Assembly: GCA_944372465.1 (NCBI GenBank)
Contig: CALVZG010000053.1
Location: forward strand, 1 to 41,631
DNA: 41,631 bases
Source of the DNA: an uncultured Clostridia bacterium
GTDB taxonomy: Bacteria; Bacillota; Clostridia; Christensenellales; UBA1242
Direction: 5' to 3'
Under the pieces are notes generated by a model, which worked only from the letters and a program-made list of their open reading frames with translations, ran no database searches and had not been told where the DNA came from. A program made the position numbers and the translations under genes. Positions 2,061 to 36,824 of the stretch are shown here, piece by piece. Numbering within the stretch: position 1 is the stretch's first letter; the number at the start of each line of letters is the position of its first letter.

Positions 2061-2330
2061 GGCCGAGAACTTGATTTGATAAGATTTCACCAACTGCCTT
2101 ATAAACTTTAAGCTCCACCAAAGCTACCTCATGGCACATCAAAGTGTCCTCTTAATGATGCTGCCGCCAGGCTCTGACATGGTTCAAAGATTTTGATTGC
2201 ATAAGACCTTGATTTCAACACCTATAGTCTACACACATATTTGACAAAATCGAACCGCATTCAAGTGTTCAATCCCACTATAGCGGATTGTGGGTTACAG
2301 AGCACCGCTAACTCTCCATCTATCTCGACT
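2061..2330 (-). ncRNA. ffs: Signal recognition particle RNA, long (Bacillus scRNA-like) form with Alu domain
   Basis: The minus strand contains GAGUUAGCGGUGCUCUGUAACCCACAAUCCGCUAUAGUGGG. From memory this matches the B. subtilis scRNA Alu-domain block GGUAGCGGUGCCCUGUACCUGCAAUCCGCUCUAGCAGGG. It also contains GAACCAUGUCAGAGCCUGGCGGCAGCAUCAUUAAG, matching the domain IV block GAACCAUGUCAGGUCCGGAAGGAAGCAGCAUUAAG. The 5' GUCGAGA pairs with the 3' UCUCGGC. The ends are approximate. Confidence 0.85.
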
Positions 2331-21048: not shown

Positions 21049-21122
21049 GCAGGTATAATTTAGTGGTAAAATGTGTGCTTCCCAAGCACAATTCGCGGGT
21101 TCGATTCCCGCTACCTGCTCCA
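21049..21122 (+). tRNA. tRNA-Gly (anticodon CCC)
   Basis: I folded the cloverleaf by hand. Acceptor GCAGGTA/TACCTGC, anticodon stem TGTGC/GCACA, loop TTCCCAA, T-arm GCGGG TTCGATT CCCGC, discriminator U and an encoded CCA. Confidence 0.9.
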
Positions 21123-21141
21123 GATGATTTAACAAAAAATT

Positions 21142-21217
21142 CGAGATGTGGCGCAGTTGGTAGCGCGTACGGTTCGGGACCGTGAGGTCGTGAGTTCGAA
21201 TCTCGCCATCTCGACCA
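21142..21217 (+). tRNA. tRNA-Pro (anticodon CGG)
   Basis: Acceptor CGAGATG/CATCTCG with the C1:G72 pair typical of bacterial tRNA-Pro. Anticodon loop TTCGGGA, T-loop TTCGAAT, discriminator A and an encoded CCA. Confidence 0.9.
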
Positions 21218-25351: not shown

Positions 25352-25740
25352 GGGGGCGTTATTGGTTTCGACGGGGAGCATTGGTTAAAATGTAAAGCAT
25401 GTGGTGAGTCTACACCTAAAAAAGACAAACAAAAACAAACGCAAATAATAATGTAACTCGTATGGGCACAGCAAGCCTAGCTTGTGCAGCTTAACGAATT
25501 AAAATCGGTTGAAGATTTCGACCAACTCTCATAACAATTTCGCCAAGTTGTTGTAAGGGTTAAAAAAGAGGCGCTCTGTAAATAGAAAAAGTCTTGGTTC
25601 TATTTATAACTTAAAAGACTAGTTATTAATTAATTTTGTTTATGTAGAGATTAATAATGAAAAAATAACATAAACTAAACATGTAGAAAAGTTTTAAACA
25701 AGTTTTTCGGAAGCGGGTTCAATTCCCGCCGTCTCCACCA
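25352..25740 (+). ncRNA. ssrA: Transfer-messenger RNA
   Basis: The 5' end reads GGGGGCGUUAUUGGUUUCGACGGGG and the 3' end reads GGGUUCAAUUCCCGCCGUCUCCACCA. The acceptor stem has G3:U70. The tag reading frame ends ...GTASLACAA, with TAA at 25492-25494. Confidence 0.93.
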
Positions 25741-25791
25741 AAACAAAGGTCAAAAATTGATGCCAAAATAAGAAAAAAGGAAGTGAAAATT

Positions 25792-26967
25792 ATGAGTTCG
25801 GTAATTATTATTGTAGTTGTTGTTCTTGGAATTATTGTAGCAGGAGGCTTTCTTCTTTATTTTATGGGCGACCTTTTCATGAGTTTGTCATACAAAAATA
25901 AAGATGCAGAAGCAATAAAAAAGAAACAACAATCAGAAACAGATGAATTAAAGAAGAGAATTGATGCTTTAGAGAAAGCAGATGAATTAAAAAAAGACCC
26001 AGAGATTGCAACAATCCTTTATAATGATGCAAATAGTGGTGCAGTAGTTGAGGATTATAACCCTGAAGCAGAATCAAACGAAGAAAACAAAGAACAAGAC
26101 GAAAACGAAGAAGTTAGTGAAGAAACTGCAGAAGATAGCGAATCAGAGGATTCAGCAGAAGAAACAACTGAAGAAAATGAATCAGAAGAGCAAGAAGAGA
26201 ATGAAGAGGATAATGATACTACAGACTATATAAGACAACGCCGTATGGAACTTCTAGAAAGACTTGCAAGAATGCAAAATGCTCAAGACGAGGATGAAGA
26301 GGACGAAGAGGAAAGCGAGGAAGAAGATACAGTTGATCTTACTAACGAAAACGAAGAATCAGAAGAAAATGAAGATAACGAAGAAAATGTAGAAGAAAAT
26401 CAAGAAGCAACAGAAACAAACCAAGAAGAACAACAAGACGATAACACTGACGCAAATGAAGAAAATACAAATAATGACAAAAAAGAAGATGTAAACACAC
26501 TTGCATCTACAATGACTATTGACGAATTAAAAAATAAATTAGCAGAAGAACAAGATAAATTAAAAGCAAATGAAAAAGAACTTCGTACATGCAAGAAAGA
26601 ATTTATTCCATTAAGAAGAATAAAAAGAACTTTAGAAAGCGACAAACGAAAATTACAAAGAAAAGAAGCTTTAGTTGTAAAACAACAGACAGTACTTTAT
26701 GGAGTAAACAACTATGCAGATTTAGATGAAGAAAAGGCAAAAAAACTTGCAGAAGATCTTGACCTTTATGATGGATTAAAACTTTCAGTTCAACATTGTG
26801 AAGAAGTTATGGAAAAGAATAAGGAAAGATATCCTCTTCTTGAAAAAATTTTCAATCTTTTGTCTTCTCAAAATGTAGAAATAAAAGAAAATATAAAAAA
26901 TCTTCAAGAAGCAATTGATAGTTTAAATACTAATGGTGCAGATGACGAAACTGTTGATGCTGAATAA
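25792..26967 (+). CDS. Membrane-anchored, extremely acidic low-complexity / coiled-coil protein
   Basis: There is an N-terminal TM helix (VIIIVVVVLGIIVAGGFLLYF), a ~180-aa E/D/N-rich region and a C-terminal heptad-like K/E region. ATG 25792 follows AAGGAAG. Confidence 0.7.
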   Translation: MSSVIIIVVVVLGIIVAGGFLLYFMGDLFMSLSYKNKDAEAIKKKQQSETDELKKRIDALEKADELKKDPEIATILYNDANSGAVVEDYNPEAESNEENKEQDENEEVSEETAEDSESEDSAEETTEENESEEQEENEEDNDTTDYIRQRRMELLERLARMQNAQDEDEEDEEESEEEDTVDLTNENEESEENEDNEENVEENQEATETNQEEQQDDNTDANEENTNNDKKEDVNTLASTMTIDELKNKLAEEQDKLKANEKELRTCKKEFIPLRRIKRTLESDKRKLQRKEALVVKQQTVLYGVNNYADLDEEKAKKLAEDLDLYDGLKLSVQHCEEVMEKNKERYPLLEKIFNLLSSQNVEIKENIKNLQEAIDSLNTNGADDETVDAE

Positions 26968-27896: not shown

Positions 27897-27925
27897 TTGA
27901 TAAACTTATAAAAAGATGTTATAAT
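27897..27925 (+). promoter_or_regulatory. Strong sigma-A promoter of the MazF-domain gene
   Basis: TTGATA, a 17-nt spacer, then TATAAT with an extended -10 TGt. RBS AAGAGGTG lies downstream. Confidence 0.7.
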
Positions 27926-27943
27926 AAAAAAAAGAGGTGTAAA

Positions 27944-29449
27944 ATGGAACTTAAAATATGCTTAAATGAAAAAGATTTAAAGGAAGCATTAAAAAAATCA
28001 TTAAGGAAAGGGTATAAAATAATTAGTTATGATATAAAAGAGAATGATTATAGTAAACTAATATTAAAAATTCAAGACTTATATACAAATGATTTTATAA
28101 GAATAAGTTTATTTGACAATGATTTGAAAGTAAATTGTGTAAATAAAACACTTGAATTTGAAGTGAAAAAAGCAATTGTCGACTTAATTGTACATAAATA
28201 TCCTGAATTAGAAAAAATAAAAGAGAATTTTGATAATTTAGCAGAGGATTCGGCAAAAACGATTGAAGAAAACATTAAAAAATCAATTTATAATATTAAT
28301 TTTAGTGATTGGAATGGATTGATAAAATCAGATTCTAAAATAAGTTTAGTCGCAAATAATGGACAGATAAAATTTGACAATCATGTAACTTTTAGGACTT
28401 TAGAAAATCCATATTATTATAAAGATAGAAAAATTAAAATAAAAGATATTTATTTTGCAGATTTAAATCCTGTTGTTGGAGATGAGTTTGGAGGAAAGCG
28501 CCCAGTAGTAATTTTAGGAAGAAACTCAAGCAATACAATATACTATTGCGTTCCATTGACTGATAAATATAGAGTTGATGGTGTTTATATAGGTAATATT
28601 AATAATATAGAAAATTATGCAATTCCATTATTAAAGGCAATTTCCCCACAAAGAATATTTAATTATGCAGGTTGTATTGATAATAAAACATATTCATCAA
28701 TTCAAAATAAATTAGCAGAAGAAATGTTATATGAAGATGGGGAACAGGAAGAAGTAGAATATGAAAGTAGTATATCATATGACAAATTAAGAAAAGTCAA
28801 AGATACACTTTCAAATAAATTAGACTTATTTCCTATAAAAAAGATAAGTAAAGAAGAAATGTATGAAATCTTAAATCAAGAAATTATAAATATAGAAAAC
28901 GAAGGGAAAATAAGATTTGCAAGGGAAACTGTAGATGGAGAGAAAGTATTGAAATATAAACTTGAATACAGTTTAAACGGGGACATAATTTTTTGTTTAA
29001 ATCCAAATAGTAATAATACAAAAAATAAATATTATCCAAGAAATTATTCATTTTCATTATTTTCTGTAAAAAGAAATGACCCTTTAAAGTCAAATAAATA
29101 TGTTTATGATAAGGATTTAAGTATTCGATATAGATTGTATATGATAAAAAATAATGAAAATTATTTTTTACATTTAATAAAATTTTTATGTAATTATTTT
29201 AAAAATGGCTATGATTATTATATTGATAAACATTTATTAAGTGATGCGAAAGGAATTCAAGAATATATAGAGGAAGCAAAAAACAATTTAAAACAACAAT
29301 TTGAAGAGGTTGGCATATTTTATGATGGAAGTTATGAAAGTTTAGTGCAAAGTGGATTTTTTGCATTTGACATATCAAAGTTAAGACCTATTGAAGCAAA
29401 AAATATCTATAATTGTCAACAAACTGACGAAGATAGAGAAAATGAATAA
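27944..29449 (+). CDS. Large protein with an internal MazF/PemK-like endoribonuclease domain (residues ~163-262) flanked by unknown N- and C-terminal regions
   Basis: IKIKDIYFADLNPVVGDEFGGKRPVVILG...CVPLTDK...LLKAISPQRI is collinear with the canonical MazF in this window ([29 protein letters not shown]...SAITSQ...[13 protein letters not shown]). Confidence 0.8.
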   Translation: MELKICLNEKDLKEALKKSLRKGYKIISYDIKENDYSKLILKIQDLYTNDFIRISLFDNDLKVNCVNKTLEFEVKKAIVDLIVHKYPELEKIKENFDNLAEDSAKTIEENIKKSIYNINFSDWNGLIKSDSKISLVANNGQIKFDNHVTFRTLENPYYYKDRKIKIKDIYFADLNPVVGDEFGGKRPVVILGRNSSNTIYYCVPLTDKYRVDGVYIGNINNIENYAIPLLKAISPQRIFNYAGCIDNKTYSSIQNKLAEEMLYEDGEQEEVEYESSISYDKLRKVKDTLSNKLDLFPIKKISKEEMYEILNQEIINIENEGKIRFARETVDGEKVLKYKLEYSLNGDIIFCLNPNSNNTKNKYYPRNYSFSLFSVKRNDPLKSNKYVYDKDLSIRYRLYMIKNNENYFLHLIKFLCNYFKNGYDYYIDKHLLSDAKGIQEYIEEAKNNLKQQFEEVGIFYDGSYESLVQSGFFAFDISKLRPIEAKNIYNCQQTDEDRENE

Positions 29450-29466
29450 TAAAAATGACAAATAAA

Positions 29467-29497
29467 AACATCTACAGACAAAAGTAGATGTTTTTTT
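29467..29497. terminator. Bidirectional terminator between convergent genes
   Basis: AACATCTAC...GTAGATGTT hairpin with an A-run upstream and TTTTTTT downstream. Confidence 0.8.
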
Positions 29498-29513
29498 ATA
29501 ATAACAAAATAAT

Positions 29514-31469: not shown

Positions 31470-31793
31470 GAATTATTACTTTTTTGTAAATAATTTACAA
31501 TTTAACCAAAATGGCGGAGTAATCAAAGTAGTTTTATAAATATTCATAAAGAGATAGGGCGGGAGGTGCGAGCCTGAATGAGATTATAAAACCAATTACA
31601 ATTATTTCAAGTTTTGCGTATATCTTGCGAAAGAGATTAATAAGTTGTAGCAAAATCATATACTAATAATTGTTTGTATTAAATAATTTTAAAAAAATTT
31701 AAATAGAAAGTTATTTTATTAACATTATGATTTTCTACATGAAATTAGGTGGTACCACGGCACGCTCGTCCTAATAATGACAGTGTGCTTTTA
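31470..31793 (+). promoter_or_regulatory. T-box riboswitch leader (Tyr specifier) controlling tyrS
   Basis: AGAGA is at 31550-31554 and GGTGCGAG at 31565-31572. The candidate specifier UAC+A is at 31597-31600. The canonical T-box AATTAGGTGGTACCACGG is at 31744-31760. The terminator GCACGCTCGTC/GACAGTGTGC plus TTTT ends at 31792. Confidence 0.88.
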
Positions 31794-35349: not shown

Positions 35350-35625
35350 ATGTTTGAAAGATATAAATTAAAAAAACATCTTGAAAAAGAAATTAAGAAA
35401 AGACAGCAGACAAAAGATGACTTAATTTCTCAAGTTTTGCAGGCAAATTTTGAAGAGCAAGAGCATAATATGTTAGTAGAGGACGAAAAAGTTTTTCTAG
35501 AGATATCAAAAAAGACTCAAAAAGAACTTTTGCCTTTAGAAAAAGCCGATTTAATAGATTATTGGAAAAAGGAAACAAATGGACGGACAAATAAAAAGAG
35601 GAGAAATTTATTACGCCGATCTTAG
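35350..35625 (+). CDS. Putative MazE-position antitoxin (weak RHH-like N-terminus)
   Basis: RBS AGGAG. Its position immediately upstream of mazF fits an antitoxin. [20 protein letters not shown] resembles the helix of EndoAI-type antitoxins. The ORF runs 47 nt into mazF. Confidence 0.55.
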
Positions 35626-35926
35626 CCCTGTTATAGGAAGTGAACAGGGTGGTGTTCGTCCTGTTTTAATAATACAAAATGATGTTGGAAATAAGTATTC
35701 ACCAACAGTGATAGTATCAGCAATAACAAGTCAACTAGGCAAAGCAAAACTTCCAACACATATAGAACTTCCTGCAGAACGGTATAATTTACCCAAAAAT
35801 TCTGTAGCATTATTAGAGCAGATAAGAACTCTTGACAAAAGGCGTCTGCAAGAAAAAGTTACAACATTATCGCCAGACAAAATGAGAGAAGTAAATAAGG
35901 CATTATTAATTTCATTAGGTTTTTAA
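35579..35926 (+). CDS. mazF: MazF/EndoA (NdoA) type II toxin endoribonuclease
   Basis: It is near-collinear with B. subtilis EndoA as I remember it: [30 protein letters not shown]...AITSQ...KLPTHIEL...[13 protein letters not shown]. Confidence 0.92.
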
Positions 35927-36750: not shown

Positions 36751-36824
36751 AGGGGTGTAGTTCATCGGTAGAATAAGAGTCTCCAAAACTCCTGAGGTGG
36801 GTTCGATTCCTACCACCCCTGCCA
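36751..36824 (+). tRNA. tRNA-Trp (anticodon CCA)
   Basis: Acceptor AGGGGTG/CACCCCT, anticodon loop CTCCAAA, T-loop TTCGATT, discriminator G and an encoded CCA. Confidence 0.92.

Follow-up and report, generated by a model that had tools for sequence, protein, structure and literature searches.

A MazF-family domain embedded between two probable copies of a domain of unrecognised fold in a family of clostridial proteins

We analyzed contig CALVZG010000053.1 from an uncultured Clostridia bacterium, a stretch of 41,631 nucleotides (nt) referred to below as the window; all coordinates are those of this whole stretch unless a related locus is named. An open reading frame (ORF) on the plus strand encodes a protein in which a domain of the MazF/PemK endoribonuclease family is located between two regions that are probably copies of one and the same domain, designated X and X'. 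The gene, referred to as the fusion gene, and its expression signals comprise the following features.

27897 to 27925, plus strand: promoter of the sigma-70/SigA type (TTGATA-17 nt-TATAAT with an extended -10 TG), matching at 11 of 12 positions.
27932 to 27939, plus strand: ribosome binding site (RBS) AAGAGGTG, 4 nt 5' of the ATG, assigned by sequence reading.
27944 to 29449, plus strand: coding sequence of the X-MazF-X' protein (501 amino acids, ATG start, stop codon included).
27944 to 28318, plus strand: N-terminal X domain (residues 1-125), modelled as a helix, a four-stranded sheet and long helices, with AlphaFold2 predicted local distance difference test (pLDDT) values of 80-90.
28319 to 28423, plus strand: linker 1 (residues 126-160), with H147 (28382-28384), invariant in the family, and N155, nearly invariant; residues 126-150 are modelled with low confidence.
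28424 to 28729, plus strand: MazF/PemK endoribonuclease domain (residues 161-262), assigned from Pfam, PDB sequence matches, Foldseek and conserved catalytic positions; activity predicted.
28730 to 28843, plus strand: linker 2 (residues 263-300), acidic and poorly modelled, with pLDDT below 50 for residues 265-275.
28844 to 29398, plus strand: C-terminal X' domain (residues 301-485), modelled as a helix, a six-stranded sheet and four helices.
29399 to 29446, plus strand: disordered acidic tail (residues 486-501, ...QQTDEDRENE), with pLDDT below 50.
29464 to 29495, both strands: terminator hairpin AAAAACATCTAC-loop-GTAGATGTTTTT of 12 bp, common to the fusion gene and to the convergent GGGtGRT gene.

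The initial annotation of this stretch, made by reading the sequence, had placed a MazF/PemK domain inside a long protein. This assignment was confirmed by the Pfam family PF02452 (PemK_toxin), which covers residues 168-259 (model positions 4-107 of 109) with an E-value of 1.1e-9 and a score of 38.9 bits for a gathering cutoff of 23.1. The precomputed PF02452 annotation of the relatives agrees with the match found for the window protein. The AlphaFold2 model, for which 21 family sequences were used as input, has a pLDDT of about 90 across residues 160-262 and displays the SH3-like barrel fold of the MazF/Kid/CcdB type. The 50 best Foldseek matches in the PDB were all MazF or Kid structures, with target-normalised template modelling (TM) scores of 0.6-0.8 and root-mean-square deviations of about 1.9-2.7 Å for most. 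On solved MazF, EndoA and Kid structures, the model superposes with TM scores of 0.7-0.8 and a deviation of about 2.4 Å. Sequence comparisons covered a smaller part of the domain. The NCBIfam MazF equivalogs and the PDB sequences (EndoA, MoxT, and the MazF proteins of S. aureus and E. coli) aligned only with its first third, and the sole match in PHROGs was a MazF-like family over residues 160-209, corresponding to the first part of the domain. The initial annotation had also proposed a block-for-block alignment with the canonical MazF encoded in the same window (35579-35926). This correspondence holds at the profile and structure levels but not by pairwise BLASTP, which aligned only residues 161-197 (51% identity, E-value of 5e-10).

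Residues R186 (cgc, 28499-28501) and T206 (act, 28559-28561) align with the arginine of the GGVRP motif and the threonine of the AIT(S) motif, respectively, of the window's canonical MazF. Based on the established catalysis of EndoA/MazF, we take these residues to be the equivalents of EndoA R25, the arginine of the β1-β2 loop, and of T48, at the Thr/Ser position. R186 is invariant and position 206 is occupied by T or S in 21 of 21 family members. Profile, fold and catalytic residues all place the domain in the MazF/PemK family. With the catalytic Arg and Thr/Ser intact, the domain is apparently catalytically competent.

The protein had been described as an orphan, which is not borne out. When 1.84 billion representative proteins were searched exhaustively with HMMER, 17 matches were obtained at E-values below 1e-10, and about 20 divergent clusters of full-length relatives (460-565 amino acids) display the same three-part layout. 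Word-indexed homologue searches, which are far less sensitive, gave 3, 3 and 1 proteins. Across the 21 members, H147, G184, R186 and P204 are invariant, and N155, L174, P176, E181 and R237 are nearly so. Two of these residues, H147 and N155, belong to an NHxxF...N motif located directly N-terminal of the MazF core. None of the sources, including the cluster look-up, provided an annotated protein name for a family member. The two genomes harboring close relatives are metagenome-assembled genomes of uncultured Clostridia bacterium, and at least one related contig originates from a human gut metagenome.

The promoter with an extended -10 box and the strong RBS upstream from the fusion gene had been correctly identified. 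A TTGAC...TATAAT promoter is present at an equal distance from the start codon in three relatives (L011, L012, and L006), and an AGGAG-type RBS is found at the same place in relatives. The terminator, initially located at 29467-29497, was confirmed as the hairpin listed above, which is flanked by an A-run on one side and a T-run on the other. These observations support the conclusion that the fusion gene is a self-contained transcription unit. The absence of a small upstream antitoxin ORF was also verified, as the intergenic gaps of 113 bp and 64 bp on the two sides of the gene contain no ORF of 40 codons or more. Neither the window nor the approximately 12 independent relatives that were examined harbor a small antitoxin gene next to the fusion gene, and no small neighbor is conserved. 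Two-gene mazEF/pemIK modules are defined by an adjacent, co-transcribed small antitoxin gene (AbrB, ribbon-helix-helix or similar), and no such gene accompanies the fusion. Since it lacks an adjacent antitoxin gene and has its own promoter and terminator, the fusion gene is not a two-gene mazEF module. A type III (ToxIN-like) RNA antitoxin, known from systems whose toxin has a Kid-like fold, was considered and rejected, since no tandem-repeat array adjoins the gene and no Rfam match was obtained. A 16-nt inverted repeat (TGTTATAATAAAAAAA, 27917-27932, and TTTTTTTATAATAACA, 29491-29506; 15 of 16 positions complementary) brackets the fusion gene. It overlaps the -10 box and the DNA located just beyond the terminator, and may have arisen by chance in DNA with a GC content of 27%.

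The initial annotation recognized neither of the two regions flanking the MazF domain. Pfam searches indeed gave no match for the N-terminal region, and neither Pfam nor PDB profiles matched X'. The two flanks display the same order of secondary structures, consisting of a helix, a β-meander and long helices. Comparison of the N (residues 1-125) and C (residues 301-485) regions by hhalign gave a probability of 81%, an E-value of 1.3e-5 and a score of 36.2 over 117 columns. Control scores were 15.2 for the reversed N alignment, at most 12.8 for 30 column shuffles and at most 19.3 for 30 block shuffles, and comparison of the N or C region with the MazF block gave E-values of 0.15-0.26. Because the match between the two flanks is far above the reversed and shuffled controls, the alignment indicates that both probably represent the same domain, X, duplicated internally around MazF (X-MazF-X'). 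Modelled separately by AlphaFold2, X' had a pLDDT of 87.6 and a predicted TM score (pTM) of 0.81. Foldseek searches with this model detected nothing significant in the PDB (best E-value of 0.58) or in the viral database BFVD (best E-value of 0.04, TM score of about 0.2).

The net charges of the individual domains were not decisive, since neither a pronounced basic character of the MazF core nor a pronounced acidic character of the X domains was observed. Consistent acidity is limited to linker 2 and the tail. Across the family, linker 2 comprises 34-111 residues with a mean charge of -4.6. The tail is formed by the last 5-24 residues, and 18 of the 19 full-length members have 4-8 D/E residues in their final 15 positions. 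This acidic end accompanies not only X' but also every stand-alone X protein described below.

A scan for relatives of the neighboring uracil-DNA glycosylase (UDG) gene, completed by look-ups of short family matches, revealed four states of the site located between the UDG and GGGtGRT genes. Most loci harbor the fusion gene only. The site is empty in L015, in which 270 bp without any gene separate GGGtGRT from UDG, the flanks being 81-89% identical to those of the window. X is present alone in L094, as the 181-residue protein P0121, which matches the hidden Markov model of the C domain (E-value of 9e-21), has an acidic end and is devoid of a MazF domain. The P0121 gene sits between UDG (79% identity) and GGGtGRT (78%). 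In the fourth state, the fusion gene is accompanied by an additional stand-alone X gene on the same strand. This gene starts 25 bp past the stop codon of the fusion-family gene in L093 (P0029, 193 amino acids, E-value of 4e-36) and ends 15 nt before the start of the fusion gene in L095 (194 amino acids, E-value of 2e-16). Loci L017 and L019, in which the identity of UDG is at most 78%, harbor an enolase gene at this position instead. The empty site of L015 and the X-only allele of L094 indicate that the fusion gene is dispensable and rule out an essential housekeeping role. The existence of stand-alone X genes and of the X-only allele also indicates that X can exist as a module of its own and tends to be associated with MazF.

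At the locus encoding P0018, a frameshift disrupts the fusion gene near its 5' end, at a homopolymer of eight G residues (positions 1771-1782 of L095 and 426-437 of L096), a striking run in such AT-rich DNA. An upstream ORF of 30 codons reads like the N-terminus of the family, and both contigs have a low coverage. The frameshift could result from an assembly error, inactivation of the gene (pseudogene) or phase variation.

No other gene of the block evolves nearly as fast as the fusion gene. Across related loci, the fusion protein is 26-51% identical to the window protein, versus 71-89% for UDG, 77-91% for GGGtGRT, 83-95% for the NifU-like protein and 78-92% for tyrosyl-tRNA synthetase (TyrRS). 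The canonical MazF of the same genomes (93-97% identity) evolves far more slowly. Nonsynonymous substitutions (dN) are 5-8 times more frequent in the fusion gene than in the neighboring genes. Ratios of dN to the rate of synonymous substitutions (dS) could not be used between species because dS was saturated. Only two close pairs gave values, of about 0.42 for the fusion gene, based on few substitutions, versus 0 for GGGtGRT and 0.33 for a partial UDG gene. Within the protein, the mean pairwise identity is 19-21% for X and X' versus 33% for the MazF core. X diverges faster than the MazF core, and the same asymmetry is observed between the canonical MazE (47-61% identity) and the canonical MazF of the same genomes. 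The fast evolution of the whole gene and its presence/absence variation fit a conflict-type accessory function.

Very fast divergence would also be compatible with a protein that has retained the MazF fold but is no longer an RNase, acting as an RNA- or protein-binding scaffold, or with a gene drifting towards loss. The low GC content of the gene (23.4% versus 30-36% for the flanking genes and 27.5% for the whole window), the empty and truncated alleles and the possibly frameshifted allele (L095/L096) are in agreement with this explanation, and a function other than that of a toxin is known for the MazF-like domain of CalpT (bioRxiv 10.1101/2024.05.08.593097). We nonetheless consider it improbable, since intact reading frames of 460-565 codons are maintained in about 20 divergent lineages, and since the conservation of R186, G184, P204, H147 and of T/S at position 206, together with dN/dS ratios below 1, points to purifying selection on the catalytic positions. 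Fast evolution and the presence of a nuclease domain within a larger protein could alternatively reveal a secreted or contact-dependent polymorphic toxin, X being a delivery or immunity-related module. However, scanning the whole protein against Pfam detected no secretion or delivery domain, and the N-terminus (MELKICLNEKDLKE...) did not resemble a signal peptide, as judged by eye. Moreover, the toxin domain occupies the middle of the protein and not its C-terminus, and no conserved adjacent immunity gene was seen. This makes a secreted toxin highly improbable.

The fusion gene belongs to a conserved block comprising, in this order, secG-rnr-smpB-tmRNA (transfer-messenger RNA), a gene encoding an acidic protein of 394 residues, UDG (minus strand), the fusion gene (plus strand), GGGtGRT (minus strand) and a gene for a NifU-like protein (minus strand). 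The block continues with a T-box-tyrS unit, a gene of the Impact_N (UPF0029) family, recX, acpS and a canonical mazEF pair. This neighborhood is retained even around family members with an identity of only 17-30% to the window protein. This location among RNA and translation housekeeping genes (secG-rnr-smpB-tmRNA and tyrS), which is kept throughout the family, raised the possibility that the protein is a domesticated, non-toxic RNA-processing enzyme, the MazF domain cutting one specific cellular RNA and the X domains acting as substrate-recognition or localisation modules. A promoter that looks constitutive and the conservation of the catalytic residues are also compatible with such a function. 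We consider it unlikely, albeit deserving attention, because the gene is absent from the close relative L015 and reduced to X in L094, hence dispensable, and because a divergence 5-8 times faster than that of the neighbors is unusual for a housekeeping RNase. In addition, the extra stand-alone X genes are difficult to explain as substrate adaptors.

The canonical mazEF pair (35350-35926, plus strand) is located downstream from acpS. Its MazF is a clean PF02452 match, and its MazE, a protein of 91 residues without a Pfam match, is encoded by a gene that overlaps mazF by 47 nt. The pair is present in the same conserved block in the window and in L005, L095 and L097. The fusion protein might accordingly be an ordinary MazF toxin neutralized in trans by an unlinked antitoxin, such as the canonical MazE encoded 6 kb downstream (35350-35625), the flanks serving another purpose. 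The fast divergence of MazE, which is not observed for its MazF partner, is in line with this proposal, and MazF-mx of Myxococcus provides a precedent for a solitary MazF under the control of an unlinked protein (cited in PMC2701414). However, beyond the first 37 residues, the MazF domain of the fusion protein shares no more than about 29% identity with its canonical counterpart, so that cross-recognition is not expected. Nor would such neutralization account for the duplicated X, the stand-alone X genes or the X-only allele. Neutralization in trans therefore appears to have little chance of being correct.

The reading that we favor, with a probability of about 45%, is that the gene encodes a single-chain, self-restrained endoribonuclease of the MazF family in which X acts as a built-in antitoxin or sensor. 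Since constitutive production of an active MazF would be lethal, the combination of a strong conserved promoter and RBS, an apparently active MazF domain and no partner gene implies that an internal restraint would be needed. X is duplicated around MazF, is found in a stand-alone form beside the fusion and can survive alone, which suggests that it behaves like a partner module of MazF. Orphan antitoxins can survive without their partner, in contrast to orphan toxins. The X-only allele fits a built-in antitoxin because it resembles an orphan antitoxin, and so do the extra X genes because they resemble antitoxin genes in a bicistron. The faster divergence of X than of the MazF core, which parallels that of MazE relative to MazF, also agrees with this reading, as do the fast evolution and the presence/absence variation of the gene as a whole. 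The acidic tail of X' and of the stand-alone X proteins is a further argument, since in solved complexes MazE occupies the RNA groove of dimeric MazF with the acidic segment at its C-terminus. PDB entries 1ub4 and 4me7 are among the Foldseek matches of the MazF domain of the fusion protein.

In what we consider the most economical mechanism of self-restraint, the MazF domains would dimerize, as in all MazF/Kid proteins, to form the RNA-binding groove of a sequence-specific endoribonuclease, and the X modules would stand in for the missing MazE. This role would be played above all by X' with its acidic tail and by the acidic linker 2, which would cover the RNA-binding groove in cis and render the constitutively made protein harmless. 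Release might occur by proteolysis of the long flexible linkers or of the tail, or following binding of a trigger or ligand to the fast-evolving X domains. The freed RNase would then cut cellular or invader RNA, thereby stopping translation and causing the cell to cease growth or to abort an infection. An additional X could be supplied in trans by the adjacent gene in some relatives. The comparative evidence, namely the stand-alone X genes, the X-only allele, the empty site and the fast divergence, fits the idea of self-restraint or sensing, put forward in the initial annotation, without constituting a proof.

Several observations weigh against the favored reading. Contact of X or of the tail with the MazF groove is inferred, the full-length AlphaFold2 model having a pTM of 0.44 and providing no prediction of the arrangement of the domains. 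The N-terminal copy of X has no acidic tail, and the invariant H147/N155 motif is not explained by self-restraint. The dN/dS values obtained for the fusion gene, few as the underlying substitutions are, are all below 1. The gene stays beside UDG throughout the family, down to about 17% identity, as would a resident rather than a mobile immune gene, and lies outside any defence island, without relatives in phages, plasmids or viral contigs. Specifically, no relatives were found in viral contigs by a search based on an alignment of three sequences, X' had no tblastn match in phage and plasmid records, and no defence profile of PADLOC-DB v2 matched the protein at E-values up to 10, whether it was searched as a whole or as separate N and C regions. 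Synteny conserved at 17-30% identity, the lack of viral, phage or plasmid relatives and the lack of a PADLOC match indicate that the fusion gene is a long-term chromosomal resident and not obviously a mobile island.

Compared with canonical MazF/EndoA proteins (PemK/Kid; B. subtilis EndoA, PDB 4mdx and 4me7; S. aureus MazF, PDB 4mzm), the MazF domain of the fusion protein has the same fold, the arginine of the GGxRP motif, the Thr/Ser residue and a conserved C-terminal strand containing an R residue. In contrast to these proteins, the domain of about 100 residues is embedded in a 501-residue polypeptide between two X domains. Unlike canonical type II modules, the fusion has no adjacent mazE or pemI gene and no DNA-binding antitoxin domain.

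CapRel-type fused toxSAS are single-chain toxin-antitoxin proteins. Neutralization of toxSAS has been reviewed (PMC11782079), and EzeT is another single-chain toxin-antitoxin, combining a cis-acting antitoxin domain with a zeta toxin (PMC4826407). As in EzeT and CapRel, a single polypeptide contains toxin and non-toxin domains, there is no partner gene, and neutralization is proposed to occur in cis with release by a trigger. The fusion protein differs from both by the class of the toxin, a MazF RNase, and by the partner domain, which is unrelated, new and present twice; neutralization is also conjectural here. In the EzeT/CapRel class, the isolated toxin domain is toxic and the other domain of the polypeptide neutralizes it. 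The architecture is compatible with a single-chain toxin-antitoxin of this type, and both forms of X found without a fused MazF, the stand-alone genes and the X-only allele, are suggestive of it. It is possible, though rather doubtful, that X defines a new antitoxin or sensor family and that X-MazF-X' is a one-protein immune or stress switch, in which the rapidly diversifying X domains would shut the MazF dimer by means of an RNA-mimicking acidic tail, and a phage- or stress-derived trigger bound by X, or a protease, would open it. With similar reservations, this switch might be the MazF counterpart of CapRel-type fused toxin-antitoxin defence, long resident at one chromosomal site in a lineage of gut Clostridia.

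MazF-like domains have been reported in other multidomain proteins. CalpT, which belongs to the type III CRISPR system CalpL-CalpT-CalpS, combines a MazF-like domain with DUF2080 and a cleavable linker (bioRxiv 10.1101/2024.05.08.593097). The fusion protein likewise contains its MazF domain within a multidomain protein, but Pfam searches detected no DUF2080 match at E-values up to 10. No genes for a Lon-SAVED protease, a sigma factor or CRISPR components are present near the fusion gene, which is surrounded by UDG, GGGtGRT and genes involved in translation. In type II Gabija, GajC contains a split MazF-like domain with a five-helix insertion and works with the GajB helicase (PMC13069673). In both GajC and the fusion protein the domain is MazF-like, and in GajC it is the presumed nuclease effector of a defence system other than a toxin-antitoxin. 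The MazF domain of the fusion protein is in contrast contiguous, and no helicase gene is adjacent. Elongated PemK proteins are listed in Pfam and have been noted as uncharacterised (PMC4826407). Deployment of the MazF fold in an undescribed way, as initially claimed, must therefore be qualified: multidomain uses of MazF are known from CalpT and GajC, and it is the X-MazF-X' architecture that is undescribed in the literature searched. Within the incomplete coverage of that search, no description of this architecture or of the X domain was found.

In this family, one polypeptide combines a MazF domain that is catalytically intact, as judged from its residues, with a partner domain of unrecognised fold that is probably present in two copies. 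MazF is among the best-studied bacterial toxins, and nearly all knowledge of it comes from the two-gene MazE-MazF form. The natural variants (fusion, fusion with an extra X, X alone and empty site) dissect the system. If X is a neutralizer or a sensor, it would represent a new class of antitoxin domains and a single-chain regulatory logic for the MazF family, and would offer a compact model for the origin and triggering of fused toxin-antitoxin proteins. The locus also illustrates that a toxin-type gene can reside for a long time in a housekeeping neighborhood while evolving several times faster than its neighbors.

Additional observations concern the neighborhood of the fusion gene. The 394-residue acidic protein (25783-26967, plus strand) consists of an N-terminal hydrophobic helix, a very long D/E-rich region of low complexity and a coiled-coil-like C-terminus, and has no Pfam match. 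Its location is conserved in all relatives, and with 49-70% identity it ranks second in the block for speed of evolution. The leader of tyrS (31506-31776, plus strand) matches the T-box model over its full length with a score of 48 bits, below the Rfam gathering threshold of 93, and an E-value of 2e-9. The RNA genes identified were tmRNA, located directly after smpB, a large signal recognition particle RNA and three tRNAs (25352-25740, plus strand; 2063-2328, minus strand; 21049-21214, plus strand; and 36751-36821, plus strand).

The space between the fusion gene and GGGtGRT tolerates insertions, as extra genes found at this position differ from one relative to another (L003, 2539-3486; L005, 9712-11784; L009, 9750-10957). 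These genes encode a protein of 315 residues that begins with a hydrophobic segment and matches no Pfam family, a hydrogenase-rubrerythrin fusion, and a helix-turn-helix protein of small size. At the locus encoding P0023, a gene of 414 codons is located between UDG and the fusion gene, in a divergent orientation relative to the latter (L097, 5610-6854, minus strand; L098, 1405-2649, minus strand). Its product has no Pfam match and contains an HExxH motif (..VAHENQHLL..), and is possibly a metalloprotease.

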